The position numbers and the translations under genes are program-made. A stretch of DNA of 64,000 nucleotides, taken from Schmidtea nova (taxonomy: Eukaryota). Shown in pieces: positions 3,237 to 48,624 of this stretch (positions are counted from its first letter, which is position 1; every line of letters starts with the position of its first letter). Below the pieces are notes generated by a model. That model did no database searches. It was given only the letters and a program-made list of their open reading frames with translations, and was not told the DNA's origin. Where the stretch lies: positions 394,630,001 to 394,694,000 of the forward strand of contig CM097883.1 in assembly GCA_044892505.1 (NCBI GenBank), read 5' to 3'.

Positions 3237-3254
3237 CTGAAATATTTCCGGTAA

Positions 3255-11922: not shown

Positions 11923-11971
11923 AACTTTTGAGAATTTTTATGAAATATTTATGATTTTTCTGAATAATTTA

Positions 11972-19307: not shown

Positions 19308-20510
19308 ATGAAATTATGTTATGCTTAATAAATATTATCTCAAAAAAGATTTAGATTTGTCCCAGTCTGTTTTTGTTCTGACTTGAGTACTATTTTTGTG
19401 ATTTGTTTCAATTATTTTTATTGAATGTAAAAATATTTATTTCTCTGATGTTTAAAAATATTAATGCATGCTTCATTCGCTCTTACAGTTCTCTAACTGA
19501 TGCTTCATGCTCACATCTTTTGAACACTCTTATTTTAAATTTTGAATTTGGTGGTTAAAAATGATATGAAATAAAATCCATTTGATATAAAATTGTCTCT
19601 AAAAACAAAAATAATTAAAATACTATTTATCTAAATTAATAATTACAAATGGCGGTTTAAATTAAAACAATATTGGTCATGATCTTGATGACGTCATAAT
19701 ATGTGCTATGTAAACACTGAGTTATTATAAATGAATTTGTGTGCTACGTAAAAACTAATGATTACGAGTGGTGCCGTCACTATGCCCTACTAGTATCCAC
19801 ACATTAGTGGCATTACCAACGTTTCTTTGCAAAGGGTAACTAGTGGTTAAAATGTGTGCTTTTAATAACCCACTGATATTGTAATAATTTATGATTCAAT
19901 TACCATTAGATACCTGTGTTGGGCCAAAACGCAATTTGTTTTAATAAAACGATAACCCAATAGGTAGAGAACGCGCAAGATTCCATTTTTAACCTTAGCT
20001 TCCATTAAAAATCCAACAATTAAGTGGAAAACACCAAAAGGTGAAGATGAATCAAAACACAGCAACCGGTAGAATGCGCGCTAACTGCGAATTTATAAAT
20101 ATTTTCACTGAAATCTCGAGAAAAATTAAAAGCAGAATGTTTGGAAGCTAGAATAGGCAAAAAACCCATGGAAAGTGCCCATAAAGAACAGAATTTTATC
20201 ATAAAACCTTCAGTACAGAAAAATTAACAAAATTTTAGAAGAAAATTGTGAATTTATCACAAAATTTCACATATAACAATAGAAAGAATTAATATGGATC
20301 GAAAATCATAAATTAAATCAAATCGAACAAATTTCGATTCAAACATAGAAATTTTGAATTAAAATAAATTATTTATAGTTTATAAAAAATTATTATACAT
20401 AAATATGGAATTAATTTTCGGAAAATCATTAGAATTAATTTAGAAAAAATTAAGAGAAAATTCTAGAACAATTTGTTTTATTGCACTACCGGAGATAGAG
20501 AAAATTTGAT

Positions 20511-20538
20511 GGTATATATACCGCCATCAAAATGGCAG
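20511..20538 (+). promoter_or_regulatory. Putative LTR core promoter: TATA-like box plus paired YY1-type motifs
   Basis: GGTATATATACCGCCATCAAAATGGCAGA; conserved in diverged relics at 9703 and 17832 (minus) and repeated at 42927. Confidence 0.55.
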
Positions 20539-23500: not shown

Positions 23501-24585
23501 ATAAAAATGTTGAATCGATGGAAGCACACTTTCTTTTGATGTAGAGAGAAGATTTCTGAGGTGATGAAGCGATCCCAGGGAGAAATCCGAGTCCTGAGAA
23601 TATATATGGTAAAGGAAGTGAAGAATAAAACTGAAAGTTTACCTGTAGAGACAACTGGATAGGAGAATTCTATTATTGAGTTCGATATCTGCAAAAATCG
23701 ATAATTATATAACATTAACATATTATAATGTAAACATTAACCAATCAGGTTGCGATATTTACCTGTTTAAAACAATGACCTGGAAAGTGATAATTGTTAA
23801 ATAAATTTTTTTTTTGTTGCTTGCATGAAATGAGGAAATCCAGGAAGAAAATTTTAATATGACAGAATTATTTTTTGTAAGTCGTAAAATAGTCTTTACA
23901 TGAGTAAATAAAACATCTAGGTCATCAAAGTTGTTTCAATTAGCTACATTGTAATCGATGTAGTTGTCAAGGCCGCGGAAAAGTTTTCAAAGAATGAAAA
24001 TATAAAAATTTCAGTAAAATTATAAATGTTATTTTTCTAAGCAAGATAGACAATAGGATTTGAATTTTCGAAAACAAAATTTAATTTAAAATCTGAAAAT
24101 ATAGGGATTTAACTAAAATCAATAGATAATAATTAAAATAAATATCTAGGTAGTTCATATCGATACCGTTGCTAATGCCTCGGCAAATTTTGGAAAAATT
24201 AAATAAAAATAAAAAAATTTAGAAAATTACAATTATGTTTCTGCAAGATAGACATTAGGAATAAGGAATAAGTGAGATATCGTTAAATTTATCGACATAG
24301 AAAATTACAAATTTAGGAGAATCTCGAAACTAATAATAAAAAGTTTAGTTAAAAATCATTAAAAATCCAATACCGTGAATAGATGTGTTAATAAAATGGG
24401 TTACCCTTTTTGATTTCCCGGATTGAGAGTTGATAAGCATATCCGTGAAAAAACTCGCGATCAAATATGTGAGAACTCCTTAACTTATTGCATTAATGAA
24501 TGAACTAATTAATTTTTGTGTATGATGATAATTTAGTAAATATTATACGATAACCAATGTCTTAAATGTTCGAACTTTTCTAGCA

Positions 24586-25158
24586 ATGAACCCAATGCAA
24601 CAACTTGAAGAGATCCGGGCGTTATTGCTAGAAAACGCCAAGCACAACAAAAGGGTCGATGCACGGTTGGCCGAACTGGAAGCCAAGGGCGCATCCAACG
24701 TAGATGCCCTCCAGATAATGACCGGCCGCATGGAAAAATTCCGGGCCCGCTGTCGCGAGATGGAGGCGACATGGTCCGATGGGGAAACAGTGGAGAAGCT
24801 CAAGAAGCAAAATCAGATGCTGCTCCAGCAGGCAGCCGAGGACGCCATGCGATTGCGAGCATGTCGAGTTTCCATGCGGGAGCAGGAGCTCACCAATCAG
24901 AAGCTACAGGTAGATAGCGGTCTTATAACGGCCATTCTGCCAAAGCCCCAATTCCCACCTCACGAGCTGTTCCCGGTGAGGGTGGAGGAAGAGATAGCAG
25001 CAGCCGCGGCTCCAGTCAAACCAAAGCGATGGAGGCCCAGTAAAGGGGCAAGGGCCCGCAACAAGCGCCGGCAAGAAGCGCGAGTTTTGGGGCAATTGAG
25101 GGTCGAGGCCTCAAAAATTGGTAGTCTATCGATCGACCTGACGCAGGCACCCTTTTGA
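24586..25158 (+). CDS. LTR-encoded 190-aa protein: coiled coil, Arg-rich motif and NES-like tail
   Basis: Intact GC-rich ORF inside an AT-rich LTR; preceded by CTTTTCTAG|CA-ATG; contains KPKRWRPSKGARARNKRRQEAR and ends ...IGSLSIDL. Confidence 0.75.
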   Translation: MNPMQQLEEIRALLLENAKHNKRVDARLAELEAKGASNVDALQIMTGRMEKFRARCREMEATWSDGETVEKLKKQNQMLLQQAAEDAMRLRACRVSMREQELTNQKLQVDSGLITAILPKPQFPPHELFPVRVEEEIAAAAAPVKPKRWRPSKGARARNKRRQEARVLGQLRVEASKIGSLSIDLTQAPF

Positions 25159-25623
25159 ACACTTCACATTTTTTTTTTATTGTGATTTTAGTAACAAATG
25201 TTATCATTTTATTATGAAATTATAAGTTTGTAATTGTTTTTTTTTGTATTTGATTGCATGGAGATAAAAGTAAATATAAAGATATTTGAATTAGTATTAA
25301 ACAAACCACCGTCGGCGAAAATGCTCAAATAAAAATCTCGTAATAAACATATACAGTGATAGAACAGATAAATTAAGGGGGACAAAAATGGGCAAGAAAC
25401 CTTCTATCGGTAGCCCTTGGACCCAGGAGATATTCGGTCAATCATAGTTTCGTATTGACGACGCTCACTGATTGCGAATACCCACCCACTTGTTACAGTA
25501 CCAACGTTACATAGTGACGGGTAACAAGGTGGTAATTTCAATGTTTTATGTGTTGAGTTGTTGATGAGAGCCATAGAAACGTCAAGGTCATATTGACGGT
25601 CAACAACCCACCATATAAAAATT

Positions 25624-25642
25624 TGGGGGCTCAGCCGGGATT
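25624..25642 (+). promoter_or_regulatory. Primer-binding site, tRNA-Pro-like
   Basis: TGGGGGCTCAGCCGGGATT matches the complement of the tRNA-Pro 3' end (TGGGGGCTCGTCCGGGATT) with 2 mismatches; lies 10 nt after the LTR end. Confidence 0.8.
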
Positions 25643-25928
25643 CTCGATTTAGCTAGTTTGTTTTGTGTGAAGCGAAAATCAATGGAAATGACTTTACGTG
25701 GGAATTTATTAATGTTTTTGTGTTGGAAAGATAAAATATTTTAAAGAAAAACGAGATTTGGTAAAAGTTTTGTAAAAATCGATAATCATTTGAGTACTTT
25801 CGACGAAAATGGGAAAAATTTATGCTTGACTATTAATATTATTTATATTGCTATTATTATTTTTACGACAATAGTTATTTTATACCATTATAAGTATTAT
25901 TATTAGGATTATAATTATAAACAGTACG

Positions 25929-25947
25929 ATTATTATTATTATTATTA

Positions 25948-26020
<73 letters not shown>

Positions 26021-26037
26021 TACCATTATTATTATTA
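25929..26037. repeat. (ATT)n microsatellite abutting an assembly gap
   Basis: ATT run directly before the N stretch. Confidence 0.95.
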
Positions 26038-26042
26038 GGATT

Positions 26043-26234
26043 NNNNNNNNNNNNNNNNNNNNNNNNNNNNNNNNNNNNNNNNNNNNNNNNNNNNNNNNNN
26101 NNNNNNNNNNNNNNNNNNNNNNNNNNNNNNNNNNNNNNNNNNNNNNNNNNNNNNNNNNNNNNNNNNNNNNNNNNNNNNNNNNNNNNNNNNNNNNNNNNNN
26201 NNNNNNNNNNNNNNNNNNNNNNNNNNNNNNNNNN
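26043..26234. other. Assembly gap (192 N) inside the giant element
   Basis: N run; true size unknown. Confidence 1.
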
Positions 26235-26899
26235 AGTAGAGAATATCGTTTTAAGTACCATTTTGAATTAAGATTTGGAAAAATTTGGAAAATAAAAAGT
26301 TCCGAATCAAAATTACCGCGAAAGCGAATAAAAGTTAAGCCGAAAAAACGATCTTTAAGCCCCACGAACAGCCAACGATTGAAATTGAGAACGATTAATA
26401 ACAACAGAGCGTAGAATAAGTGTCTTTAATATAAATAAACGTCAAACATAGCATAGGATAAAAAGTTGAGCCGGAATGATCCAAAAGTCTAAGAAAATCA
26501 CGGGTAAAATAGTCAAAATACAAAATCGCGACAAATGAATCCCACGAACAACCAATAATCGTAAAATTGTTCAAATAACGTCCATAGAGCGTAGAAAGTG
26601 AGTACGCAGCACCGGCAAGTGGAAAATACCTCGAAAGATAGAATTTGACACCGAAATCCGCAAAAAGTGTAGAAAATCGCCGCTAAGAAATTCAAAAGAT
26701 TGAAGAAATTACGGAATTTTGACCCAAGAAAGCAGTAACACCGAGTATTAATGATAGTATAGATATCAGGATTATTATTATTATCATTTTAACAATAGAA
26801 AGAGTAATTTGGTCAAATAATAAAACCGATTTATTATATTTTTATTATAATTATTACGTAATAATATATAAGAAAAATATTGGGTAAATTGCCGCATAA

Positions 26900-27095
26900 C
26901 GCGCATTATTATTATTATCATTATAATTGCTATTATTACTATTATTATTATCATTTTAGTTATTATTACTAGTAGTACTATAAGCATCTTAGTATAATTA
27001 TTATTATTACTATTATTATCATTATTATCATTAATATTATCATTATTACTGTTATTATCATGAGTGTTACTGTAGATGTCATTATTATTACTAAC
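26900..27095. repeat. Imperfect (ATT/ATC/ACT)n low-complexity tract
   Basis: Degenerate trinucleotide run. Confidence 0.8.
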
Positions 27096-27849
27096 GATAT
27101 CAATGTTATGCTATTTGATTAAGAATGACCGAGGTATGACCCCTGTAATTTTATTTTGTTGGCAAGGAAGGACATGGAAAGTATCGGGTCTAGAAGAAAT
27201 AACGGCGAAAATGGAGCGATGCGTGAATTGTTTGTTTTAATTAATATAATAATAAAAGTGGAGAATGAATGATATAATCTAATGAGTTTGAAGTTTGAAT
27301 GTTGAAAAAGATAGATTGTTGAAGTCAAAATGATGCATGGTGATATTGGAATGTTGATCGCGACTCAATTCGGGAATCGAAAACGGGAATAACTCTAAAA
27401 TCTTATGAAATCATAAAATAAAATCTAGCAACGACTTAAAAACAAATATAATCAAACAGGAAAAAGTGAGACTTAACGTAAATACGAAAATTGTGAGATG
27501 CCCAAAAATTGGGAACCTAGTAAAAGGAAATGTTATATGATCATACGATACGGGATAGAGTTCACGCAAATCACCTAGAAAACAAATATTCGAGTATACA
27601 AAAATTGCTTTCAGTAAACGAAAAATTACCAAAAATTGCGAGTGCTGTAAATAAAAATATAATTATCCTAAAATTGATAAAAAGAGTAAAAATCATGAAA
27701 ATTGTGTAAATAAATGTTTAATTATTTTTTATGTAGAAAATATTAGTATATTTAAAAAATATAAAAAATCATAAAAATCATGTACTTAATGGCTGATTAT
27801 TTTATTCAAAAAATATCGAATATGGACGAATGGAGAAAATTATAAAATA

Positions 27850-27990
27850 TAAAAAGGTAAAAATATAAAAATATAAAAATATAAAAATACAAAAATATAT
27901 GTATAAAAATGGCTGAATATTCTGTTAGTTAAAAATATAAAAATATAAAAATATAAAAATATAAAAATATAAAAATATATGTATAAAAAT
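27850..27990. repeat. AAAATATA 8-mer repeats with duplicated GTATAAAAATGGCTGA block
   Basis: Seen directly in the sequence. Confidence 0.8.
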
Positions 27991-28158
27991 GGCTGATTAT
28001 TCTGTTAATAGTAGTTTTGAAAAAATACAAAAATATATAAAAAATTATAAAAATTCGTGTACATAGCTGTTGAAGTTTTTATTATTTATTTTTCGTTCAA
28101 ATTATAATGAATGGTTAATTTAAAAAGTTATAAACACCAGTCATCATGAATATTTTAG

Positions 28159-28641
28159 ATGGAATCGATTGAGCATATTCTACTACGAATCGAGTTGTTT
28201 TTCGATTTTAAAAATGACCCATTGCAGGTGTTGAGCGAGAAACTCGAACGAGTAAATGGAATAAAAGATGAATTATTGTTGAATCCTAGACCACAACCTG
28301 AGAACCTAATAGTGATTGCAGGAATTGTGGGAACAACAAACGATATTTCGTTGGAAACGATTTATGAATTACAACGATTGCGACTGAATAATCCGAATTT
28401 TAATCTGAATATACAAGAATGGATTGGTAAGATCGATAAAATTATGGACAAGCTAGAGAGATCGATAAATCAACAGATCGATTCATTCGAAAGATTTTAT
28501 ATTTGTCGACAAAAAGAAGCGAACATTTTGTTCATGCCATGTGGGCATTTGTGTTATTGCCAGCCGTGCTCTAGAGAAATAAAGCGATGCGTAATCTGCA
28601 AACAGACAATTGATGACAAAATCGTCGTATTCTGTTCGTAA
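28159..28641 (+). CDS. 160-aa protein with C-terminal IAP-type RING (first Cys replaced by Phe)
   Basis: FYICRQKEANILFMPCGHLCYCQPCSREIKRCVICKQTI; TTTTAG directly before the ATG. Confidence 0.85.
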   Translation: MESIEHILLRIELFFDFKNDPLQVLSEKLERVNGIKDELLLNPRPQPENLIVIAGIVGTTNDISLETIYELQRLRLNNPNFNLNIQEWIGKIDKIMDKLERSINQQIDSFERFYICRQKEANILFMPCGHLCYCQPCSREIKRCVICKQTIDDKIVVFCS

Positions 28642-29268
28642 AGAATGTCGTTCAAAATAAACGTTTTAGTCATGTTGAACTTCGTCGATCATCCAGTAAT
28701 ACAAACCGTTATAAAAATTAAATAAACAAAAAACACTAGGTAATTAATGATTGAGAGTCGTGTAAAAACATAACAAGTAACGGCTAATGCCGAAAAATCA
28801 AACATTAGGAAAATGGGAATTTGTGACAAAGTTATTTTCTTTTCTTTTTGAATTTTCTTTATTATTATTATTATAAATCCTCCTCATCATTATTATATTG
28901 AACCGAATTTCATTACTATAATCTCCCTTATTACCATTATTATATTGATTATCATTATTATACTGATCATTATATATATAAATATGTATGTATTAGGACG
29001 AGCAATAAGTAGCGTTATAGGAGTTGATTTTATAAGGAAATCTTCCGAAATACAGTGAGAAATGAGTGTCTGAGTAGAAACGAGAAAATAATCCACAAAT
29101 TCATAACTGAGCTATCAAAAGATAGTACGCCAAGTTTTAACAGAGCTATCAAAAGATAGTACGTCAATATTTCTGTTGTTGAAAAATTAGCAAACAACAA
29201 ACGGGGAAAAACCTGATCACCTTAAGGAGAAAGTGTAGAATAGGATCCATCGCAAATGTGGATAAATT

Positions 29269-31047
29269 TTGTTTGTGACTGATCATCACAACTTGCAGAA
29301 CGAGTCGACGCGATTATTTTACGATTTTAACTTAGGAGAAAGGGTCAAACCCGTAATGTTCGTCTTATACACCAGTTTACCAAGGCATGATTGGTACACT
29401 GAGGTAGGAGACAGTAATATTAATAAAGAGAAAGATGCTGCAGATTTTAGAAAGTCGAAAGAGTAGAAAGTGAACTTCGACGATTTTACCATGGTAATTA
29501 AGAAATGAATTCGTAATTGAGAAGTAGTAGAACAATTTGAGAAAAACCAGTCAGCAACAGCGAATTTATTTAAAAATTTGAGAATAGGGAAACGAGTGAT
29601 TGAATAGCATAAAGAGAACAATTGAAGACGGCCGAGATAATTGAGAGACTTTGAGAGTCCATTGAGAGACTTTGAGAGTCCATTGAGAGACTTTGATAGT
29701 CCATTGAGAGACTTTGATAGTCCATTGAGAGACTTTGATAGTCCATTGAGAGACTTTGATAGTCCATTGAGAGACTTTGAGAGTCCATTGAGAGACTTTG
29801 ATAGTCCATTGAGAGACTTTGAGAGTCCATTGAGAGACTTTGATAGTCCATTGAGAGACTTTGATAGTCCATTGAGAGACTTTGATAGTCCATTAAGAGA
29901 CTTTGAGAGTCCAGATAATTGAGCGCTCGGGGAGAGACTTTGAGAGTCCAGATAATTGAGAAACTTTGAGAGTTCATGTATGTGAGAGACTTTGAGAGTC
30001 CAATGTTTGCGAATATTGTTGAGAAATTTAGGAAAAATGTTTGAGAAATAGAATTAAATAAAACTGCAGTTATAATTTTGTCATGACAGAGAAAAACGTT
30101 GAACGCGAATACTCAAGGTGTATAAGAGCAGATAAAAGACATCGAGAAATACTTAGGAAATAAAATAATGGCCATGAATAGATAACGAACAAGACATTTT
30201 TTTTTACCTCGAATGCCGAGATGAATATGAAAACGAGTCGACAGGATCCTACTGTTATTATAGTATTAGTATAGTTATTATTATTGTTATTGTTATTATT
30301 ATTATTAGGGTATAGATAATTGATACGACCATATAGATAATTATTACGAGATATAGATAATTTAAAATCTGAGCTCAAAGTAAAAGGGGGGTAAATGGCG
30401 TCGATGAAGAAGCGATTTTTTTATTTAGATTGTCCAACAGATCAAAGCCAAGTCAAGAGACAGTCAAATCAATCAGTTATTGAAGAGGTATATATAGAAG
30501 AAAAGAAGAAAAAGAAGTCTAATTGAAAAGGAAAGAAGTAAAAGAAAATAAATCAAAGAAGATCCAATTGAAGATAAACGAGAGATCAGCAATCGATATT
30601 AAACGCAAATTGATAATACTACCAAACCAACCAAGTTCGTAAAGTCGAAAGATAAAGAGTCAAATCTATTAAAACGACGAAAGGAAATTACAAAGAAACA
30701 AAGCTGATAAATAAGGAAGTAAAATCCACAATATTTGAATGTTTGTAGCCGATTTTCAGAAAGAAATGGAAGAGAATCAGAAAGTGACCAGTGTAAACTC
30801 GGAAGATAATTTATTAAAAGAAGAGCAGAAAATAACCAGTCCAAAAGTAGAAGATAATTTGCAGGAAGAAGAAAAAGAAGTAGTAACAATGAATATGCAA
30901 CTGCAACAGAATATCGAAGGAAAGGTAAATGAAATGATAACCGAACTATCAGACGTTGAAATTGAAAGAAAGGGAAATGTATATGAATTTTCAGTAAAAG
31001 ATATGGAGGGAGAAGAAAAGAAGAAGTTTGTGGAGAAATATAACTGA
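29269..31047 (+). pseudogene. Decayed coding-like region at the gag position (fragmented by stops and repeats)
   Basis: Purine-rich plus-strand fragments (29269-29466, 30739-31047) broken by in-frame stops, upstream of the protease ORF; no diagnostic gag motif recognised. Confidence 0.35.
29641..30001 (+). repeat. 21-bp minisatellite (13 near-perfect plus about 3 degenerate copies), open as (RDF[D/E]SPL)n
   Basis: Unit GAGAGACTTTGA(T/G)AGTCCATT; no spacers. Confidence 0.96.
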
Positions 31048-31086: not shown

Positions 31087-33876
31087 ATGGACGAGAAATG
31101 GGATGAATCTACGACAATCAAATTAGAAGAAGTGGCACAAAGATTGTTAACAATTACCATGGAAGAAATGACGAAAATGGATCAAAAATCAGAAGAAAAG
31201 AGGAAATCAGCAAAGCTTGAAAGATCAAGACAAACAGAGATGTCAAAGACCGAACGATTAATCAGTAACCTAAGCAAGAGTGCAGGAAATCAATGTGAAA
31301 CAACAACTGAATTACTAAAATGGGTTATAAAAAATAGTGCAAATATATCAAATATGAGATTGATAGTGAAAGAAATTGAGAAATGCAGACATTTATGCCC
31401 TTGGTATTCAACACAAATTGATGACATCATGAGAAAATGGAAACAACTGGAACAAACAAATGATGATCCACAGATGTGCAGATTGAAAATTCAGTTTCCG
31501 AGTCTAGAAGAAATAAAGATGAATGTATCATTAACAACAAAGATCAAAGAGATAAAAGAGAGATTACCATTCAATTTACCATTTCACTTGAAATATGATG
31601 GAGAATCGCTGGATGATGATATAGAAATCGGTGTAACCCCGATACAAATCGAAACAAGTAATAAATTAACTGTTGATAAAATTGCAGGAAGCGAGTTAAC
31701 CAGAAAAGCGAGAGGTGAAGATAATCCCGAAACAACGATAATTGCAATGATGAAAACTCCAGCTGGACCAACACTTACAATTAACATCAAAGTTAATGAC
31801 GTAAAAGTAGACGCGATGATAGATACTGGCGCAAATATATCAGCAATAGATATCGATATGATACCAGAAATGTTACGGTTATGCATCGAGAAAACATCAG
31901 TAGACGTAATAACATGCAGCAAAGAATCTGTCAATATCGTTGGAAAGATATGGACAGACATCGAATACAGAAATGTAAAAATATCAACTTATTTGACAGT
32001 AATAAAACAACTGGGTGCCTCATGCATTATTGGAACAGACTTAATACCAAAACTGTTAAAAGGATCTGTAATTGATTTGAATACGATGAAGTTGAAACAC
32101 CAAATTGAAGAGAATTGCACAAGAGAAACAATGATAGAACAATCAAATCCAGAAACAACCAGAAAAGGACAAGTATATATGTTCCGAGAGAATAAAAATG
32201 ACGATTGGCTACATCGTATATTAACTGCGAGCAGAAAAGTAAATCAGCCAACAACAATATCTGAACAACCTAAGGTAGTTGACGATGTAAAAATGGAGCA
32301 CCGCAAAAAGATGGAATTGATCATAGAGATTACCAAAGAAATTATGCCAGAATGGTCAAAAAGTAAAAATCTATTCGAAATATTGGGAGGAGTAAGCTTA
32401 ATGGTTGAGGAATATGCCAAAGGAAATGAAACAACAGAAGCGATGAATACCATAAAAGAAAGATTACCAATATTATTTACAATTGCCAGTTTTAAAGATG
32501 AAATACCATTGTATCACGCAATAAAAAGTGGGAATGAACAGAGAATGTTTGAAATCATAAAACTCATGGAAAAGTGTAAACAACATACCAACACGAAAAA
32601 CTGGAAAGATCAAACACCCTTGATGATAGCAATTGAAAAAGGAGGATCCAAGAAACTCATAGCAGAACTGATGAGAACCGGATCAAGTTTTAAAGAAAGA
32701 GATGATAAAAATGAAACGGTGTTATCATATGCAGTGCAAGCAAATAACCATCAAATAATCAAATATATTATGTCAAATGCTACAGAAGAAGATATTGAAG
32801 TGCTCAGTTCAGATCCAAATCCATTAGTAAATGCAGTGAACAAAGATGCCGACGAAACAACAGCAAAAATGATTAAATGGTTACATCCAGTTACGCACGA
32901 AGGAGTGATAAATGTCAATGACAGATTTGAAGACGGTGAAAATATGATAATGAAAAGAGCCATGAAAAGAAAATGGAAAATGTGTAAAACGATTAAAGCA
33001 TTGCTGCAAAGACCTGATTTCAGATTTACAAACAACAAAAAAGAAAAAGAAAGAATTGGATCTAAAAGATATGATATATGTCAGCAAGTCATCATATGGA
33101 AAGAACATATAAAAGAAAGCAGAATTCACCGAAGCTGGAACAATGCCAAAGATGAGATAACCAAGAGAGCAAATATAAAAGCCGAAGCAGATGAAATAGC
33201 TAAAAGATATGAGGAAATAATAAAATTAATAAATGTCGAGGACGACATTTTAATCAGAACCGAGGGTGGTGCTGATGATCACAATGAGCCTGACGATGAA
33301 GATGAAGAGAATGATAACAACAAAACAAAGAAAGATGACAATGAAAGTACCAACAGAAACAATGACAAAGACGAGAAAGATGATGGAAAAAGCAATAACG
33401 ATGAAATTGGGAACAAAAGTGATGAACCCAAGCAAGAAACTTCAAATTATGAAAAACGAACAGCATGTCTACATAAAACTCGAATAAAAGACATAATATT
33501 GCTGATACTGATGCTGTCAACATTGAAAGGAACGGAAGCCGATGATAAAAGAAAACCAGTACAAGTATTAACATCAGGAGCAGATAATGAAGAAGCATGT
33601 TGGAGTAGCATCAATTTGCAAAGTAAAGGAGATAATCCAGTCAAAAGTCAACGAGCAGAAGGAGGAGAAATCCGAATAAATGGATTGAAGCGGGATGCAA
33701 AATACAAAATCTGGGTTTACAAAAGGAAAGCATCACAAGAAATGTTTAGAACACTCGTATGTCAGATAGTAACACATAATGGTTCAAAAGTCACCCAAGA
33801 AGACATAAAAGTCATATTAACCGACGAGCCAGATGAGAACATCAGGATGTCGTCGAAACGCAAGTTGTCAGAGTAA
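31087..33876 (+). CDS. 929-aa polyprotein: ubiquitin-like domain, retroviral aspartic protease, about 4 ankyrin repeats, acidic linker, internal signal-peptide-like segment, FN3-like tail
   Basis: UBL-like aa 130-202 (IKMNVSLTTKIKEIKERL...LKYDGESLDDD...KIAGS). Protease DAMIDTGANISAI (DTG at 31822) and CIIGTDL. ANK motifs LYHAIKSG, TPLMIAIEKG, TVLSYAVQAN, NPLVNAVNK. DIILLILMLSTLKGTEA, then IRINGLKRDAKYKIWVY. Confidence 0.85.
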   Translation: MDEKWDESTTIKLEEVAQRLLTITMEEMTKMDQKSEEKRKSAKLERSRQTEMSKTERLISNLSKSAGNQCETTTELLKWVIKNSANISNMRLIVKEIEKCRHLCPWYSTQIDDIMRKWKQLEQTNDDPQMCRLKIQFPSLEEIKMNVSLTTKIKEIKERLPFNLPFHLKYDGESLDDDIEIGVTPIQIETSNKLTVDKIAGSELTRKARGEDNPETTIIAMMKTPAGPTLTINIKVNDVKVDAMIDTGANISAIDIDMIPEMLRLCIEKTSVDVITCSKESVNIVGKIWTDIEYRNVKISTYLTVIKQLGASCIIGTDLIPKLLKGSVIDLNTMKLKHQIEENCTRETMIEQSNPETTRKGQVYMFRENKNDDWLHRILTASRKVNQPTTISEQPKVVDDVKMEHRKKMELIIEITKEIMPEWSKSKNLFEILGGVSLMVEEYAKGNETTEAMNTIKERLPILFTIASFKDEIPLYHAIKSGNEQRMFEIIKLMEKCKQHTNTKNWKDQTPLMIAIEKGGSKKLIAELMRTGSSFKERDDKNETVLSYAVQANNHQIIKYIMSNATEEDIEVLSSDPNPLVNAVNKDADETTAKMIKWLHPVTHEGVINVNDRFEDGENMIMKRAMKRKWKMCKTIKALLQRPDFRFTNNKKEKERIGSKRYDICQQVIIWKEHIKESRIHRSWNNAKDEITKRANIKAEADEIAKRYEEIIKLINVEDDILIRTEGGADDHNEPDDEDEENDNNKTKKDDNESTNRNNDKDEKDDGKSNNDEIGNKSDEPKQETSNYEKRTACLHKTRIKDIILLILMLSTLKGTEADDKRKPVQVLTSGADNEEACWSSINLQSKGDNPVKSQRAEGGEIRINGLKRDAKYKIWVYKRKASQEMFRTLVCQIVTHNGSKVTQEDIKVILTDEPDENIRMSSKRKLSE

Positions 33877-34026: not shown

Positions 34027-34662
34027 ATGAATCCGAACAACGAGAATCAAAGTTATCAAACATCAGTTCCAACGTTCAATGAACCATCAAATCAAACTCA
34101 GTTTCCAGAAGATACCAATATACGAGAAAGAGAAGGGTCACTGCAAACCCCAGTAATCGAAAATGAAACGCAAAATCCAACAATTGACGAAAGAAACCTG
34201 ATATACCAAGTTGAAATTCCACTATTTGATGAAACCATGAACCCAATTCAAACGACATTCGTATTAAATCAACAACCAACAAATAGCCAGACTCAATCAA
34301 TATCAGCTCCGATGGTTTATCAGCAGACAATGACGCAAGAGTTATCATGGAAAACGCAATGTGAATTATTAAGCAGGATGTTGAATCAAGCCTATGCACA
34401 ATGGAAAAACGAACAAGCTTTGTTAACAGAAAGCGTAAACAGAAATTTATTATATCTTGCTAAAATGGAAGAACAACAACAAATGATAATCCAAAAGGAC
34501 CAGAGAATTGAATGGTTAACAAGACATACGGAGTGGCAAACAAACGAAATCAGAAGATTGAATGAGACGCGAGAAGAAGTTAGAGCATGGTATAACTGGT
34601 TAGACAATTTTCCAGAACCGGTTCGAGAACCTGACTCGACGGGAAGGGATGAACTATTATAA
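34027..34662 (+). CDS. 211-aa hypothetical protein (Q/N/T/P-rich N-terminus, coiled-coil C-terminus)
   Basis: Intact ORF; TTGACAG|AA precedes the ATG at 34027. Confidence 0.7.
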   Translation: MNPNNENQSYQTSVPTFNEPSNQTQFPEDTNIREREGSLQTPVIENETQNPTIDERNLIYQVEIPLFDETMNPIQTTFVLNQQPTNSQTQSISAPMVYQQTMTQELSWKTQCELLSRMLNQAYAQWKNEQALLTESVNRNLLYLAKMEEQQQMIIQKDQRIEWLTRHTEWQTNEIRRLNETREEVRAWYNWLDNFPEPVREPDSTGRDELL

Positions 34663-34702: not shown

Positions 34703-36160
34703 ATGAATAAAACTTGGTATAAAGAGCAAAACGAAAAAATTGTAAATTATTTTAGAATGCAGACCGAGAATCAGCAGAAACAAGAGGAATTGATCGAACT
34801 ATATCAGATACTACAGAGACAACGGATAGAACCAACAGAATTTCAAGAAAGATTTAAATGTAAAGTATGTAGAAATTTATTGATAGAACCCAGACAAACT
34901 GAATGTGGATGTCGAATATGCACTAATTGCGTGATGAAAATAATACGAACCAAACAGAAGCTATGTCCTGAATGTGGTGAAGCAATAATAGATCAATTTG
35001 ACCAAACCAGACCAGATATCGCAATGAATCGGGAAATAATGAACGCAGCAACAACCTGTCCAAATAAACCATGTGTATGGAGTGGGCCAATAAAATGGAT
35101 CGCCAAACACCTTTATAATTGTGATGATACGAAAGCCAAATGCAAGTGGTGTAAGGAAGAAATGTTGAAGAAAGTCAAAGACAGTCATGAGGAAATGTGT
35201 GAACAACGACAGGAAATATGTGAGTTTTGCAATGAAACAGACGCTTGGATAGTGTTAAAAGATGAGCATTGGAATATAGAAGAAGGGCAAGTATGTGACG
35301 AGTATGAAGGTAATTGTAATCAATGTGGAATGGCAGAAAACGTGAAGCTAAAAGAACATTGGGAAATATGCGAAAAGAAGCCTACTGCATGTCCACTAAA
35401 ATTATTCAACTGCAAAGTGAGATTACCAAAAGAGGAAATACAAAAGCATGTAGATGAAAATAGTGTAAATCATTTGAGAACCGTTGTGGAAGCTATTGGA
35501 GCAACCGCACTGGTAATTGGAGAAGCCAACACAGAAATAAAATCACACAAAATCATGATACAAGAGATGTTGGATACGAGAGGAAACTTTGAAAGAATAA
35601 GAGAACAAATGATCCAAAAAATGATACTATTAGACCAGAAAATAACAGAAATATCAACAATCCAACAAAGATTGGAAAGCATATTGCCAACAATGGAAGA
35701 ACTACCCGTCACACCCTACTATTGGAAAATCACAGAATTTACAGAGAAATTGAGACTAGCAAGAGAAGGAGGTCAACGTGTATGGACAAGTCCACCTTGT
35801 CACAGTTGGAAACATGGTTACAAGCTTAGATTCAAAGTATATCTAACGGGAGACGGACTAGGAGCCGGAACTCATTTATCTGTATATTTTCAAATATGTA
35901 AAGGAGATTATGACGATTGGTTGGAATGGCCCTACGATTGTGATATAACTATGATGATCGGAACAAAGGAAAACAACGTTCGGGAAGTATTCAGACCAAA
36001 CTTGAAGAAGGTAGAAGCAGCTTATAGGAAGCCGATCGAAAACTACAACGTAGCTGTAGGAAATCCACGTTTTATTGCATTACATTATTTAACCACAGAA
36101 CAATCATTATATTTGGTAAATAATATCCTGTATCTGATTATCGAAGTGAGGAAGCCGTAG
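34703..36160 (+). CDS. TRAF: Full-length intronless TRAF-family protein (RING, TRAF Zn fingers, coiled coil, MATH), TRAF2/3/5-like
   Basis: RING CKVC...ECGCRICTNC...CPEC; repeated Cx-Hx3C fingers; MATH YYWKITEF...GYKLRFKVYLTGDGLGAGTHLSVYFQICKGDYDDWLEWPY; 485 aa from the ATG at 34703. Confidence 0.95.
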   Translation: MNKTWYKEQNEKIVNYFRMQTENQQKQEELIELYQILQRQRIEPTEFQERFKCKVCRNLLIEPRQTECGCRICTNCVMKIIRTKQKLCPECGEAIIDQFDQTRPDIAMNREIMNAATTCPNKPCVWSGPIKWIAKHLYNCDDTKAKCKWCKEEMLKKVKDSHEEMCEQRQEICEFCNETDAWIVLKDEHWNIEEGQVCDEYEGNCNQCGMAENVKLKEHWEICEKKPTACPLKLFNCKVRLPKEEIQKHVDENSVNHLRTVVEAIGATALVIGEANTEIKSHKIMIQEMLDTRGNFERIREQMIQKMILLDQKITEISTIQQRLESILPTMEELPVTPYYWKITEFTEKLRLAREGGQRVWTSPPCHSWKHGYKLRFKVYLTGDGLGAGTHLSVYFQICKGDYDDWLEWPYDCDITMMIGTKENNVREVFRPNLKKVEAAYRKPIENYNVAVGNPRFIALHYLTTEQSLYLVNNILYLIIEVRKP

Positions 36161-36380: not shown

Positions 36381-37550
36381 ATGACTGAAAGGAAGATCGT
36401 GAAAATACGAGAAGATGACAGATCATTCAAAAGTTTATGCGAATTAATGAAAAGAGGTAAAGAAAAGATGTCAAAACCAATTACCTCAGAAATGATTCAT
36501 TGTCGATTTACACGAACAATATCGAATGTTCCTAAGGAAAGGAGTTATGGAAAATTCAAAATTATCGATGAAACGTTGAAAAATGAGAACCGAAGATATA
36601 TAACCTTTTTACAACAAGACAATTTCTATGAAAAGCAATACAGAAAATTCGCCAAAGATGGTTTGTATTTTGCAGGGACAATTGAGAAACCCGATAAAGT
36701 AACCTGTGTATTTTGCAGAATTGAAATAGAACCTTGGAGAATTAACGATGATCCACTTACAGAGCATAGAAAACTTTCACCCACATGCCAGTTTGTGTTA
36801 AAGGCATGCGAAAAACCAAGAAAACCAGCAACAATGAACCACGACGAAGAAGAAAAACCCAAAATAGTAACGATAACTTCAACAGGTCCAGCAAAGATAC
36901 GATTCATAGAAATTGATCCAAAATATACGATTAATGGGAGAACTGACACCTTTGCGGATAAAAAGATGGGTATCAGATTAGCAATAGAAGGTTTTTATGC
37001 AATAAATGAATCAACAGCTGAATGTTCAGAGTGTGGAATACAATATCAATTACCAAAAGAGGAAGGAGAATACCTGAAACACAACGAATATTGTAAATAT
37101 GGAGAAGAATTATATGAAGACGAAGAACCGATCAATTATAAAAACCCAGAGATGCCTGTTAATGAATTATTAGTAGATAAGATATTAGACGAACCACGAA
37201 CTCAAAAGGTAATGGAACGCACCGGCAAAAGCGAAATATTTGTGAAAGAAGTTGTCAGAGAGAGATTGAGAAGAAATGGAGAAACATTTGGATCAACCCT
37301 AGAATTTTTCAAAGCTATGATACAGTTCACCAGAAAATCCCAAGTTGTCAACCCAGAATCATGTATCAAGAAAGTTATATTAAATAAACACCCCTGTTCA
37401 ATTTGTTGGATAAAGAAAGTAGAAGTTATTCATTTACCGTGTGGACATCTGTTAGCATGTGAAAATTGTAGCAATAAATTGAGATTGTGCTCGATGTGCA
37501 GGAAACCGGTCGACAAACGGATCAAGGGATTCCGTTATGCCGACCAATAA
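36381..37550 (+). CDS. IAP: Intronless inhibitor-of-apoptosis protein (BIR, degenerate BIR, UBA-like, RING)
   Basis: BIR CVFCRIEIEPWRINDDPLTEHRKLSPTC (Cx2Cx16Hx6C); second BIR CSEC...HNEYC; UBA-like VMERTGKSEIFVKEVVRERLRRNGETFGST; RING CSIC...LPCGHLLACENC...CSMC. Confidence 0.94.
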   Translation: MTERKIVKIREDDRSFKSLCELMKRGKEKMSKPITSEMIHCRFTRTISNVPKERSYGKFKIIDETLKNENRRYITFLQQDNFYEKQYRKFAKDGLYFAGTIEKPDKVTCVFCRIEIEPWRINDDPLTEHRKLSPTCQFVLKACEKPRKPATMNHDEEEKPKIVTITSTGPAKIRFIEIDPKYTINGRTDTFADKKMGIRLAIEGFYAINESTAECSECGIQYQLPKEEGEYLKHNEYCKYGEELYEDEEPINYKNPEMPVNELLVDKILDEPRTQKVMERTGKSEIFVKEVVRERLRRNGETFGSTLEFFKAMIQFTRKSQVVNPESCIKKVILNKHPCSICWIKKVEVIHLPCGHLLACENCSNKLRLCSMCRKPVDKRIKGFRYADQ

Positions 37551-37684: not shown

Positions 37685-39232
37685 ATGAATATACAACAAT
37701 TGATAGACATCCTAGATCAGGAGATGGCCAAAAGACAAGAGCAACTAAATCAAATGAGAAATTATGAACAAAGAATGGAAGCCATCCAAGAGAACGTTAA
37801 AATGATTGAAAAACGAACCCAAGAGATCAATAAAATAAAAGAGGAAAATGAGGAACTGCGAAAGATAATAATCGACAAGGCGCATGTCGAAGCTGAACTA
37901 GAAAATTATAAACGAGAGTACAGGGAAATGGAGAGAAAACTCGAGCATGAACAACGAAAGTCGGTACCGTTGAAAAATCAAGCAAGATTGAGAAAAGATG
38001 AGCTCGAAACTTATAAAAGAGATACCGAAACAAGGTATGACAACTCCATAAGATTCTATCAGCAGCAACTCGAAAGTGAAAGAAACAGATATGAAGCCAT
38101 GAAAAAGAAATGGGAAAAGTGTCGAGATGAAGCATTTGTTTTGAGAGGACAACCTCAAAAGAAGCTTAAAGTCAGAACAAGAAACATTGAACCTGAAAGC
38201 GAACAAGAAAAGATCATTAGAAAAGTTAAAGCAGAGGCTAGGAAATGGAAACAAGAACACCAAGATTTGTTGGAAATGGCTCGACACAGAAAAATGCTAC
38301 AGGAAGAATTACTAAGACGGAGAGACGTTCAAATCGAGGCTCTGAAAGAGGAATGTCATTGGTATGCAGACATACGTCATGAGGAAACGGAGAAACTCAG
38401 AAAAGAAATATTCCAGTTGAAAACGAGCGGACAGTTCAGAGAAAGAAGCATAAAGCATCAAATAAAGTGGCTAATAGAACAAGCCAGAACATGGAAAAAG
38501 ACCTGGAAAAGAACTCGAGACGAACTACGAGAATTCCCCAAGAAGCTGATGTCAATAAATGAAGCAGAATTGTGGGAAAATGCAGAAAAGCAAGAGATAG
38601 AAAACAAAGAATTAAGACGGCAAATTCAATTAAAAACCGAATGGAATCAAAGGAGAATGAAATTTACCAGGAATCAAGAAGCTCGCATCAAATATCTGGA
38701 ATTCGAAAACAGGCAATATGACCAACAGAAGAATATGGATGATCGAAGTATTGAAGAACTGACAAGAGAATTGACTATTGCAAACCGTGAAGTCAACGGA
38801 TATCGAGGAACAAATACTCATAAAGACATTGTTATTCAACACCAGCGACGGCAGATAGAAGAAACAAAGGCCGAATGTGAGAAAGCGATCCAGCAATCGC
38901 AGTATGAAATTGAAATGGCTATCCAAAGTTTGGAAGAAAACCGCCAAAACTATGAAAGAGAGATTGAAAGATTGAAAAATATGGAAAATACGAGAGAGCT
39001 CGAGATAGAAAAAGAACAGCTGAGTGAAGAACTCGATTATATGACCTATTTGCTAGATGAAGAGATAGAAATCTCAAGAACTTTGCGAGAGAGAGTTCAG
39101 AGCCTACAAAATCAACCTCCAATCATTCTATGGCCACTATATCCAACACCAATACAACCTGTACATTTGGAGCCAGAAAATCCTCAAATCGAAGATGAAG
39201 GGTTCGGAGAAATTGAAGAGACGTTTGTATAA
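37685..39232 (+). CDS. 515-aa long coiled-coil protein of unknown function
   Basis: Intact E/K/R/Q-rich ORF with heptad character; TTTTCAG|A precedes the ATG. Confidence 0.8.
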   Translation: MNIQQLIDILDQEMAKRQEQLNQMRNYEQRMEAIQENVKMIEKRTQEINKIKEENEELRKIIIDKAHVEAELENYKREYREMERKLEHEQRKSVPLKNQARLRKDELETYKRDTETRYDNSIRFYQQQLESERNRYEAMKKKWEKCRDEAFVLRGQPQKKLKVRTRNIEPESEQEKIIRKVKAEARKWKQEHQDLLEMARHRKMLQEELLRRRDVQIEALKEECHWYADIRHEETEKLRKEIFQLKTSGQFRERSIKHQIKWLIEQARTWKKTWKRTRDELREFPKKLMSINEAELWENAEKQEIENKELRRQIQLKTEWNQRRMKFTRNQEARIKYLEFENRQYDQQKNMDDRSIEELTRELTIANREVNGYRGTNTHKDIVIQHQRRQIEETKAECEKAIQQSQYEIEMAIQSLEENRQNYEREIERLKNMENTRELEIEKEQLSEELDYMTYLLDEEIEISRTLRERVQSLQNQPPIILWPLYPTPIQPVHLEPENPQIEDEGFGEIEETFV

Positions 39233-39507: not shown

Positions 39508-40083
39508 ATGAGACTATTGAAGCAAAGATCAGAACCAGAACAACAAACGATATCAAAAGAAAGATTCAAAAAATGGAAAAGAGCAACAGAGCAATATTAT
39601 CAAGACCAAATAGACCAATTGAAGGAAGTAGTGAGCAAAGATAGAAAATATATCGCACAAATGGAGCAAGAGTGCGAGACGATGGAAATAATCAAGCGAG
39701 AAAATTATCTATTTCGCCAACAAAATGGTCTCACTCAAAAATATTGCGACAGACAGAAGCAAGAGATTGACAGACTCAAAAGGGAAATAAGCAGTGAACA
39801 GAACACTGTTAATAAAAGGAGAATTAAGATCGAGTCATTACAACGATCCTTGAAGAGCAAACAGAAAAAGATTATAAAAAGAGAGAAACAGATAATAAAG
39901 TTGAAAAGTGAAATCATAGAAGCAAAATTCGATACGTTCAAAGCAAAGAAAGTTGTAGAAATTAAAACGGCAGAAAACTACGTCCTCAAAGAGAAAAGGC
40001 GAAAAGAAGCAGACGAGATTGCAAAAATGGGTAACTGGAAGCCAGAAAGTCCGTTAAAGCTAAATGAAGAGACGAAAGAATAA
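39508..40083 (+). CDS. 191-aa basic coiled-coil protein
   Basis: Intact ORF; TTATAG|AAA precedes the ATG. Confidence 0.75.
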   Translation: MRLLKQRSEPEQQTISKERFKKWKRATEQYYQDQIDQLKEVVSKDRKYIAQMEQECETMEIIKRENYLFRQQNGLTQKYCDRQKQEIDRLKREISSEQNTVNKRRIKIESLQRSLKSKQKKIIKREKQIIKLKSEIIEAKFDTFKAKKVVEIKTAENYVLKEKRRKEADEIAKMGNWKPESPLKLNEETKE

Positions 40084-40178: not shown

Positions 40179-41003
40179 ATGAACAATCTAATGAGGATCA
40201 CAACAACCATCATGATATTTATAATTACAAACTGCCGAAGCGAAGAAGCATTGAGTCAATGTCAAGCAAGCCATCCATTTAGAAGATCCGATAGCATTTG
40301 CGTAAGCTATCAAGAAATTTGTATCAGCAGAAATGAGGAGTGTCAACAGATCCAACTACAATGTCAACAATGTCCTAAACCCAGAGAAGATTCAATCACC
40401 ATCCTTAAACAATTGAGAAATGAAACTCAACAATTAATCCAATTACAAATCTCCTTAACCAAAAGAAACAATCTTCAACTAAAGAAATAGCTCGAAAACC
40501 AATCATCCTTCAAACAGTTAACGACCGAACTAAAGAAATTGAGCAAGTTAATAGAAAAATCTCTAAATAATAAAGATGAAGTTAATGAGGAAAGATCAAG
40601 TTTCACAGAGGAGTTAAATCAAAAACTAAAAACTCAACTTCATCAAACCGAGAGAATTATAAAGCAATTGATATTACCCGAAAAGCAAAAGGAGATTATC
40701 CCTAAACAAGGATCAACCAACGAAGACGTCAGAGACCGAGAAGCAGCCATCACAGTCGTTCTACAAGGCATCAGTCTTTTCGCGGTCATAATGATCCTTA
40801 GCATGGTTGCATCAATCGGATTAGAGAAAATGAAATTAGAGAAAGCGAAAATCCAGCTGAATACCATCAAACGAATCACCCTTGAAGACAACAACCCGGC
40901 AAAAAATTTTCTAAGATCAGTATTTGAAGATCCAGTTCCAAGACATCCTAATCCTGAGACATCTACAACCTCGGTGCAGATGAATTACTTCTATAAACAA
41001 TAA
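40179..41003 (+). CDS. Type I membrane protein 1 (274 codons) interrupted by one in-frame TAG at 40488-40490
   Basis: Signal peptide MNNLMRITTTIMIFIITNCRS and Cys-rich/coiled ectodomain. ORF-track entries 40179-40490 and 40539-41003 share a frame with no other stop. TM helix AAITVVLQGISLFAVIMILSMVASIGL. Confidence 0.75.
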
Positions 41004-41205: not shown

Positions 41206-42000
41206 ATGAAATCGTACCGAGAAGTTTTTCTAATCGCCATGATCACAACAATTTGTTGTCATCTTGAAGAGACCCGGAAATCAAGCCAATTAAACCCAAA
41301 TCAACCAGATAATAAAGAATCATTTGAAATCTCTAACAACAAACAACTATCCGAAAAGATCGAGCAAGCCAAAATCGAAATTCAAAATACCCTTTTCAAT
41401 CAAAATGATGAAATTTCAAGTCTAAAAAGAATAGCAAGGATAATATTAGCCGATTTAGCGATCAGAGATACATTCGAGGATATTTTTGATAATGATCGAG
41501 AAACCCGTGACGCAATAAAAAGTCTCACCAAAGAACTTAAAAGGAATGTAGGCAAGTTAATCGATCAGCTAACGATAAATTCATCAAGCCCGAAATGTCT
41601 GAAACAAATCCAGCAAATTCATCATAACCTGTCCCAGTAGATTTCCGAAGTAGGAAACCAAACGGCACAACAACTGAGAAAGGCTTATTTCGAGAACCTG
41701 GCATTTAAGAATAAAATCCACGATCACGTAAAAGAGATATCGAAACCGGATAACAATCAAGACAGAGACAAGTGCAGAGTATCCCTCCTATCATCCGAAC
41801 GAATTCTCGGGATCTGCCTGATCATCCTTAACTTTTTCTTAATAATCGGAATTTGTGGTATAATATGGTTAGGCTTGACCGCCACAAGAATAATGAACAA
41901 CATGACCTCCAAACAATCCCGAAGAGAAGATGACAAGAAACAGTTGATCAATTCCGAGTCATTCAAACTATTCCAGTCGAAGATCCAACCAATTCAATAA
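41206..42000 (+). CDS. Type I membrane protein 2 (264 codons) interrupted by one in-frame TAG at 41638-41640
   Basis: Signal peptide MKSYREVFLIAMITTICCHL. Manual translation past the TAG stays open for 119 codons to TAA at 41998-42000 and includes TM ILGICLIILNFFLIIGICGIIWLGL. Confidence 0.75.
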
Positions 42001-42332
42001 TAAATTTGATAATTTAACAAACTTAATAAACTTGATAAAACTATTATCCGAGTCGTTGTAGACTCATATTGAATTTTGATTAGCCGCTGTAGGCACATAT
42101 ATTACATTACATTTAATTTTGCTTGCGAGTCGATGTAGACTCATATTTATGTATATGTGTAATTTTATTAATTTTTTTTTTATAAACTTTTTATTTTTAT
42201 TGTCGCGAACGGCATGATCACGACCAAGTAGCTCGTGTATAATGTACAACCTTTTGACCTTTGATTAGTCTTGGTTCTTAACCCCTCTGAGAAATTGCGG
42301 GACGCAATTTTTGCGGGCCCCCGAGTATTTTA

Positions 42333-48029: not shown

Positions 48030-48445
48030 CCTGAGTGATTTTGTAATTCACACAATGGGACTACTGACAGTCTGTTCATATATACCTGCTAGCAAATAAT
48101 TTTAAAAATGCTTGTTTTTTGGTCATTACTACGAAATAGTTATAAGTGAGAAATGTAATTCAATTTATTAACACAACAAAATCTTAAATAAAAATCCGTG
48201 ACAATTTTCAAGCATTGAGCAAAAATTATCTACTCCTGATTTAAAGTGACTATTTTATGATCACACTGACCGATTGTTGGTTGATCCAAATGAATTCGTT
48301 TGTTTACGATCAATCTCTTAATTAAATTTTGTCAATTCATAGTTATTATTAAAATTTTGCTACAACCAAGAATTAATTAATAATAAAAAATTTTTGATAA
48401 AAGAAATTAACATAATTATCTTTTTTCACCTTTGATCTTTTTTTA

Positions 48446-48624
48446 TTATTATTATCAATAATTCTCATAATGACTATAGATCAAAATTTGTTTTTATAAA
48501 CAATTACACAATATTTCGGCACAGCCTTTATCAAGTGTGTCTAAAGACTGTGCCGAAATATTGTGTTATTGTTTATAAAAAAAATTTTTAATCTAGTCAT
48601 TATGAGAATTATTGATAATAATAA
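48446..48624. mobile_element. Palindromic foldback/MITE (about 80-bp inverted arms, short loop)
   Basis: Left arm ...ACAATATTTCGGCACAGCCTTTA and right arm TAAAGACTGTGCCGAAATATTGT... are near-perfect reverse complements out to TTATTATTATCAAT/ATTGATAATAATAA. Confidence 0.85.

Follow-up and report, generated by a model that had tools for sequence, protein, structure and literature searches.

A condensed Burro-type polyprotein in a non-autonomous LTR element of Schmidtea nova

An LTR Element Without Replication Genes

The window analyzed here, a stretch of 64,000 nucleotides from the planarian Schmidtea nova (assembly GCA_044892505.1, contig CM097883.1, positions 394,630,001 to 394,694,000 of the forward strand), carries a 28.1-kb long terminal repeat (LTR) element at 19917-48029, counted from the first letter of the window. 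Inside it lies an open reading frame (ORF) of 929 amino acids (aa) at 31087-33876 on the plus strand, where all listed ORFs and other features of the element are found. A sequence-only reading had described this ORF as an unusual polyprotein with a ubiquitin-like domain (UBL), a retroviral protease (PR), ankyrin repeats, an internal signal peptide and a tail resembling a fibronectin type III (FN3) domain, and the ORF is indeed present. What had not been raised is that it is a condensed Burro-type polyprotein in a non-autonomous LTR element, hereafter the satellite. Judged by alignment, four pieces of the polyprotein of an autonomous Burro1-like Gypsy element from the same genome, termed here the helper, are joined in it in frame and in collinear order.

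The element is bounded by a 4-bp target-site duplication (19913-19916, repeated at 48030-48033) and by two LTRs of 5,697 bp (5′ LTR, TG...CA, at 19917-25613; 3′ LTR at 42333-48029) without a single mismatch between them. LTR pairs are 99.96-100% identical in the four satellites examined, and the 4-bp duplication, a mark of recent insertion, was seen in the window satellite and two others. An 18-nt primer-binding site (PBS, 25624-25641) is complementary to the 3′ end of host tRNA-Pro(TGG) plus CCA; it is identical to that of the helper, with a 2-nt variant in one of the four satellites shown. The earlier reading had remarked that no reverse transcriptase (RT) follows the protease, and there is none anywhere in the element. 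The helper polyprotein finds no match to its Gag, env, RT, RNase H or integrase (IN) within 19917-48029, and a run of 192 Ns in the element is too short for the missing replication genes. With all of these genes absent, the window element is not an autonomous Burro. It combines the traits of a non-autonomous LTR partner as given in parts of PMC11302176: no RT or integrase, a PBS and LTR termini shared with the helper, and recent insertion.

The methionine that opens the 929-aa frame turned out to be internal, so that the frame stands as first reported and its start does not. The ORF of the family begins about 107 codons earlier and spans about 1,036 aa, of which the window frame is a portion. 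The N-terminal part lies at 30739-31047, with a likely start ATG at 30766, and matches helper aa 554-612; in the window copy it is cut off by an in-frame premature stop (31045-31047) upstream of the annotated start, which none of 25 other copies has. Frames of at least 1,040 aa were found for 115 of the best 150 protease matches, and none of these matches has a frame above 1,129 aa.

Domains of the Condensed Polyprotein

The protease is the clearest domain (31753-32106): Pfam RVP matches aa 232-323 with 24.6 bits against a cut-off of 20.7, and the aspartate of the DTG motif at aa 246 (31822-31830) is intact in all 14 open copies. A PDB sequence search with the protease gave no match. The ankyrin module matches Pfam Ank_2 at aa 475-565 (32509-32781; E 1.8e-10) and is the most constrained part of the ORF. 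This match covers about three repeats, the fourth of the earlier reading being visible by eye only. Viral ankyrin proteins include the vankyrins of polydnaviruses; the parallel with IkB mimics that had been drawn gains no support from the best 60 of 101 PDB matches, which include neither IkB nor NF-kB chains.

The UBL (aa 130-203, 31474-31695) had been called by eye, and fold searches agree with that call at a middling level. Pfam gives Rad60-SLD at aa 132-180 under the cut-off (E 0.021), and a profile search against PDB gave no match. A low-confidence AlphaFold model from a two-row alignment (pLDDT 56) has the beta-grasp order beta-beta-alpha-beta-beta-beta. With this model, the top ten Foldseek rows are all ubiquitin-like (E 0.04-0.11) and the best VIA hit has Z 6.4 with an rmsd of 2.5 over 63 aa. 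The C-terminal di-glycine is absent, replaced by IAGS or close variants in all 14 open copies and by IAGN in the helper.

Downstream of the ankyrin repeats, an acidic Asp/Asn low-complexity linker (33262-33486) precedes the signal-peptide-like segment (33493-33546). The latter is predicted from hydropathy and homology: aa 803-813 form the sole 11-residue hydropathy peak, and the helper has a signal-like segment at the aligned position. The FN3-like tail (33553-33801) holds a single domain, homologous to four repeats of the helper, a region that itself passes Pfam fn3 (28.7 against a cut-off of 25), and a profile built from the five repeats of tail and helper matches fibronectin with E 1e-4. 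Its AlphaFold model is a beta-sandwich (pLDDT 59) for which VIA lists FN3 domains in its leading rows (Z 6.8), while Foldseek puts pVHL first and FN3 sixth. ESM Atlas values (0.76-0.78 for the UBL, 0.86-0.88 against FN3 clusters for the tail) serve as leads only. The fold scores of both UBL and tail are middling, and homology is the stronger evidence for FN3.

Derivation from the Helper Polyprotein

The helper encodes a single frame of 4,992-5,006 aa in the order Gag, three CCHC knuckles, MATH, env fusion glycoprotein, PR, RT, RNase H, IN and ankyrins, with a SUMO-like domain after MATH (aa 1504-1581; fold support middling). Burro1/GYPSM1 is described in parts of PMC6431247 as a giant Gypsy element of dugesiid planarians, with a single ORF of 4,873 aa in Burro1, and we assign the helper as Burro1/GYPSM1-like from the domain layout given there; the lengths obtained for two copies of the helper are about 27 and 29.7 kb, against a Burro1 criterion of >30 kb. 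Pfam found no BCL2-like or dUTPase-like match in the expected helper segments, and a BH2-like motif near aa 1890 was seen by eye only. The best 150 RT matches are all 100% identical, 70 of them in frames of at least 4,980 aa, hence the helper is active. Besides the PBS it shares LTR ends with the satellite, most helper LTRs being 93-98% identical to the window LTR over the first 650 and last 235 bp, as well as a conserved GC-rich stretch before the 3′ LTR (42300-42332 in the window), which is identical in both.

The ORF aligns collinearly to helper aa 554-652 (44% identity), 1396-1581 (48%), 2728-2877 (61%) and from 3904 to about 4450 (41-47%, covering 3904-4268 and beyond). Gag, MATH and the region through Env have been lost in frame, as have RT, RNase H and IN, three of the FN3 repeats and the membrane anchor. 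The UBL shares 64% identity with the SUMO-like domain of the helper, and the protease 61-69% with the Gypsy Pol protease that precedes RT there. In a protease tree, which has no Ddi1 row, it joins the helper protease with support 100/99 against five other env-bearing families. Because some 1,150 aa separate UBL and protease in the helper, their adjacency in the satellite is a product of deletion and not a relationship to Ddi1/DDI2, the parallel that had been suggested; the ORF protease is a Gypsy Pol protease in an LTR element and not a Ddi1-type cellular retropepsin.

In the part of the helper beyond the ankyrins, a signal-like segment comes first; four FN3-like repeats with cysteines follow, then a Thr-rich stalk, a membrane segment and lastly a Tyr-rich tail. 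This C-terminus (aa 4347-4992; locus L071:8046-9983) represents a second, receptor-like membrane protein besides Env, of which the Burro section of PMC6431247, in the part considered, makes no mention. The single FN3-like domain of the satellite is a remnant of this four-repeat protein.

Synonymous divergence between satellite and helper is 1.1-1.9 in the ORF, versus about 90% identity in the leaders. In leader trees the satellites form one group in 0 of 200 bootstraps, and one of them nests among helper leaders at 99/99. This leader similarity fits repeated exchange, by co-packaging or by gene conversion.

Several other multicopy Gypsy families of this genome (loci L034:3052-, L085:1586-, L089, L040, L046; LTRs 0.9-1.1 kb) hold frames of 3,000-3,400 aa in which Gag, a Bcl-2-like part and a fusion protein of Monjiviricetes type are combined with PR, RT, RNase H and IN, a compact, related form of the Burro layout. 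The env-bearing Gypsy families with LTRs of about 1 kb to which a Bcl-2 search led were rejected as helpers, their proteases being only 26-33% identical.

Copy Types and Abundance

Element types were sampled at both ends. At the 5′ end we took 32 of 729 exact LTR-end junctions, with a search pattern that favors the window's type and leaving out junctions already tied to top protease hits. They comprised 22 satellites, all with the ORF, two helpers with an ORF of about 5,000 aa, three integrase-truncated copies and five interrupted ones. The 31-mer across the junction of interior and 3′ LTR, common to all types, occurs 2,129 times; its first 40 plus-strand matches on contig 1 gave 31 satellites, eight helpers and one integrase-truncated copy. 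If this sample is typical, there are about 1,650 satellites (1,300-1,900) of 25-28 kb and about 430 helpers, the satellite making up about 3% of the genome. The 72 junctions sampled in all yielded no additional, third type that has a long frame.

The integrase-truncated copies have the same LTR ends and make up a second non-autonomous type, whose 1,350-aa frame opens within the integrase core (L062:5721-9773, L065:5252-9304, L098, L149). It is 98% identical to the helper C-terminus and retains the ankyrins and the whole FN3 membrane protein.

Selection on the ORF

Fourteen open copies (the window's, the three top protease hits, and 10 of the 22 junction-sampled satellites, the only ones of these whose frame is wholly open) were compared, with a mean identity of 96.6%. 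Variants were scored against the commonest codon of each column and the mutation spectrum was taken from four-fold sites. Shared variants give an omega of 0.38 (88 synonymous and 94 non-synonymous; nominal p 2e-10) and singletons 0.75. By domain, omega for shared variants is 0.07 in the ankyrin module, 0.30 in the protease and 1.17 in the acidic linker, which is unconstrained; the UBL has 0.19 from three changes, not significant alone, and UBL plus PR together 0.27. This domain-wise pattern matches what function predicts. A copy-specific chance fusion, which the sequence-only reading had kept in mind, is ruled out, the fusion being both family-wide and constrained.

Other Genes of the Element and Its Surroundings

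The 16.7-kb interior starts with a long leader (25614-30765) carrying ATT and 21-bp tandem repeats. An IAP-type RING ORF of 160 aa lies within it (28159-28641) and is also found in helper leaders, whole in three of six. Downstream of the polyprotein follow a Gln-rich ORF of 211 aa (34027-34662), strongly constrained and of no family; a full-length, intronless TRAF with RING, zinc fingers, coil and MATH (34703-36160); an IAP with BIR and RING (36381-37550), which makes three RING proteins on the element; a coiled-coil ORF of 515 aa (37685-39232); a basic coiled-coil ORF of 191 aa (39508-40083); and two ORFs with signal peptide and membrane segment (40179-41003 and 41206-42000), each with a stop in the window copy (40488-40490 and 41638-41640). 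In the end-sampled set, omega is 0.20 for TRAF, 0.27 for IAP, 0.18 for the 515-aa coil, 0.21 for the 191-aa ORF and 0.39 for the first membrane ORF; the second, with 1.13, shows no constraint.

All 31 satellites sampled at the 3′ end keep the 515-aa ORF. TRAF and IAP occur in 21 of them, an alternative membrane protein in three, and neither in seven. The alternative cassette (as at L019:2282-3736) encodes, in place of TRAF and IAP, a 481-aa protein with a signal peptide, a membrane segment, an EGF-like Cys pattern by eye and no Pfam family. The TRAF/IAP/coiled-coil cassette was found in none of 20 distinct helper copies with an intact 3′ end (two of two, 13 of 14 fetched with one interrupted, and eight of eight including three repeats).

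The PBS stands 10 nt from the LTR end, and in place of a purine tract the 3′ LTR is preceded by the GC-rich stretch, found exactly in 2,129 places. The genes for the primer tRNA-Pro(TGG) form a long tandem array with a 308-bp period on contig 1 at 459.6 Mb, and the genome holds 1,105 pattern matches to this tRNA. The middle segment of the LTRs (23430-25300 and 45846-47716) has only 74-76% identity in the two other loci compared, and includes a GC-richer 190-aa ORF of no family (24586-25158, again at 47002-47574). Elsewhere in the window, two ordinary decayed Gypsy elements with stops lie at 3255-8160 and about 11970-16170, and short inverted-repeat elements at 48440-49477, immediately right of the 3′ LTR. 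Three host-like exons were recognized by eye on the minus strand: a WD40 protein (722-1411), an ABC-transporter-like fragment (2708-3434) and a nuclear-receptor-like fragment (55461-55958).

Proposed Life Cycle and Function

On balance, we lean toward the view that the element is a trans-mobilized satellite whose processed modules, together with TRAF and IAP, dampen death and ubiquitin signaling where the elements are active. Its RNA would be packaged by helper Gag, primed by tRNA-Pro, and copied and integrated by helper enzymes. Co-packaging with helper RNA, followed by template switching, would keep the leader and LTR ends of both elements in step. A YAG acceptor lies at most 6 nt from the ATG in seven of nine ORFs, against a background of 15-17%, which suggests one spliced RNA per ORF. 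Such RNAs may arise by cis-splicing or by spliced-leader trans-splicing, the latter being known in flatworms.

Inspection by eye picked out a candidate cleavage motif of which the helper has five occurrences, located at the Gag end, ahead of PR, between RNase H and IN, and past IN. Two of these candidates are kept in the satellite, both flanking the protease and both in all 14 open copies: one before the protease at aa 219-222 (31741-31752; helper aa 2743), the other before the ankyrin module at aa 363-366 (32173-32184; helper aa 3905, after integrase). They are consistent with the earlier proposal that the protease releases UBL and ankyrin effectors. A protease dimer would cut at these two positions and yield an N-terminal helical piece with the UBL, a free protease and an ankyrin piece. 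The last would be anchored by the internal signal sequence, with its one FN3 domain sent into the endoplasmic reticulum; the UBL, as it has no di-glycine, would bind partners and not be conjugated.

TRAF and IAP proteins are a known pair in survival signaling from TNF receptors. Because the retained and added genes encode RING, TRAF, IAP, UBL and ankyrin proteins, damping of death or immune signaling in the expressing cell seems to us the function most probably under selection, a preference held with modest confidence. The benefit would be that the expressing stem or germ cell survives or mounts a weaker immune response, to the advantage of both partners.

A more far-reaching and rather tentative reading is that of a bipartite env-bearing animal retroelement, with the Burro gene set split over two co-packaged, mutually dependent genomic RNAs. 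One segment would carry Gag, Env, Pol and the FN3 receptor-like membrane protein, and the other would combine an accessory polyprotein that processes itself with TRAF, IAP, RING and membrane proteins expressed as a spliced array. Leaders would be swapped by template switching, and the accessory segment would keep stem cells alive during bursts of copying. If so, part of the planarian TRAF expansion would be element-borne.

Alternative Explanations

Several points weigh against the host-signaling function that we prefer. Broken copies spread: the window copy has three stops and yet identical LTRs, and because of that identity its stops are likely older than the insertion, with assembly error as an alternative. 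Four copies have in common a deletion that truncates the ORF at aa 853, 10 of the 31 satellites lack TRAF and IAP, and the part with signal and FN3 has an omega of 0.62, at which constraint is not significant (p 0.06). The p-values for selection are too small, as related and recombining copies were counted as independent and only open copies used, and those for the acceptors and the cleavage motif are too small as well, the 6-nt window and the motif having been picked after looking. Also, an unseen sister autonomous family may be the source of the ORF, the searches giving the best 150 matches.

The main rival to a role in host signaling is direct action on the helper particle, which we consider unlikely. 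The satellite would then be a selfish competitor, whose protease and ankyrin module act on the helper polyprotein or particle (by early cutting, by mixed dimers or by occupying the ankyrin partner) and favor packaging or integration of satellite RNA, with the host-signaling genes as side cargo. The ratio of about four satellites to one helper fits this, as do the helper origin of the retained pieces with their candidate cleavage sites, and the optional presence of TRAF and IAP beside an ORF that no satellite sampled at the 5′ end lacks. However, the helper is also thriving by its identical RT matches, TRAF, IAP and four other cargo ORFs are constrained as much as the ORF, and non-autonomous elements usually exceed their helpers in copy number anyway. 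Selection could also act at the level of the animal, expressed satellites being dominant-negative restriction factors against the helper; truncated element proteins such as Ty1 p22 and Fv1 do restrict their parent elements, and the protease here is kept without its substrates Gag and RT. We hold this to be improbable, given that the satellite is highly mobile according to its near-identical LTR pairs, that shared variants mark spreading lineages and not single fixed loci, and that the usual restriction modules (pieces of Gag and Env) are not kept.

Equally improbable is a passenger relic: an ORF, now functionless, that arose recently by deletion in a sister autonomous Burro family and inherited its apparent selection signal from there. 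It could draw on the spread of broken copies, the higher omega of singletons, the low share of wholly open frames among junction-sampled copies, and the compatibility of sister families with searches that return the best 150 matches. Yet all copies have the same in-frame junctions while amino-acid changes are depleted domain by domain, from the ankyrin module to the free linker. Moreover, no frame exceeds 1,129 aa among the best 150 protease matches, the sampled junctions hold no third long-frame type, and the proteases of other env-bearing families are only 26-33% identical. The least probable alternative, in our estimate, is a convergent Ddi1-like enzyme in which UBL and protease stay joined as a ubiquitin- or SUMO-directed protease acting on host proteins. 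The two domains are adjacent, in frame and jointly constrained on an element with three RING proteins. Against this stand the candidate cleavage site between them in every open copy, the creation of their adjacency by deletion, and the position of the helical region, which precedes the UBL here and lies between UBL and protease in Ddi1.

Comparison with Known Systems

Burro elements and coding non-autonomous partners were already known; new here is a non-autonomous Burro partner with a constrained condensed polyprotein and host-like genes. It isolates the accessory functions of Burro on a separate RNA that can be targeted by RNA interference, so that the idea of Burro interfering with host apoptosis and ubiquitination, put forward in the part of PMC6431247 considered here, becomes directly testable, and the helper polyprotein is shown to close with a receptor-like FN3 membrane protein. 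It is also a warning that mobile copies can raise the numbers of TRAF, IAP and RING genes counted in genomes of this kind; TRAF expansion has been reported in planarians (parts of PMC6109357).

No relative outside the present genome, and no Burro sequence, appeared in searches of protein databases, metagenome contigs (0 of 77 candidates) and viral contigs (0 of 16 candidates). Among longer proteins there was one ankyrin-only match, and among protein representatives all 150 rows were generic ankyrin proteins, without a true relative in either; the helper ectodomain had no protein database match and the ankyrin region none among shorter proteins. No title or abstract start in the literature search dealt with a Burro satellite or a Burro FN3 membrane protein, although Grohme et al. 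(2018) may describe short forms. In the portion of PMC11410931 covered there is a single mention of Burro and none of non-autonomous elements, and the Burro section of PMC6431247, in the part considered, mentions no satellite, signal peptide or fibronectin/FN3 domain.

Ddi1/DDI2 resembles the ORF in a UBL adjoining a retroviral-type protease; here the protease is of Gypsy Pol type, the adjacency deletion-made and the carrier a multicopy mobile element. The planarian nidovirus PSCNV likewise has about three divergent ankyrin repeats in the polyprotein of a planarian parasite; they have close host relatives according to parts of PMC6211748, whereas those of the satellite have only generic ankyrin matches. 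The resemblance to Burro1/GYPSM1 lies in the helper, which matches its order of Gag with three CCHC knuckles, MATH, SUMO-like domain, env, PR-RT-RNase H-IN and ankyrins in an ORF of about 5,000 aa. Burro elements carry apoptosis and ubiquitin motifs, with BIR, Smc-like coiled-coil and RING listed for Burro1 (PMC6431247, in part), and BIR, coiled-coil and RING motifs recur in the helper-satellite system. The difference is that the condensed ORF is on a non-autonomous partner, and that BIR, coiled-coil and full TRAF are on the satellite and in none of the 20 helper copies. Large retrotransposon derivatives (LARDs) are likewise LTR-bounded and moved in trans, as the satellite probably is, but their internal cargo rarely exceeds 10 kb (PMC6431247, in part), compared with the 16.7-kb interior and many constrained ORFs seen here.

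As a partnership, the system resembles RLG_Quinta/RLG_Cereba of wheat and the semi-autonomous Sabrina/WHAM, in which an old partner shares PBS and LTR ends and keeps an intact helper-derived ORF. Quinta keeps Gag, and its association with Cereba is called mutualistic (parts of PMC11302176). Coding non-autonomous LTR partners in the cited literature keep Gag, whereas the present satellite drops all structural and replication genes except the protease, keeps its host-facing modules, UBL and ankyrin among them, under selection, and adds up to seven host-like genes in an element of 25-28 kb.

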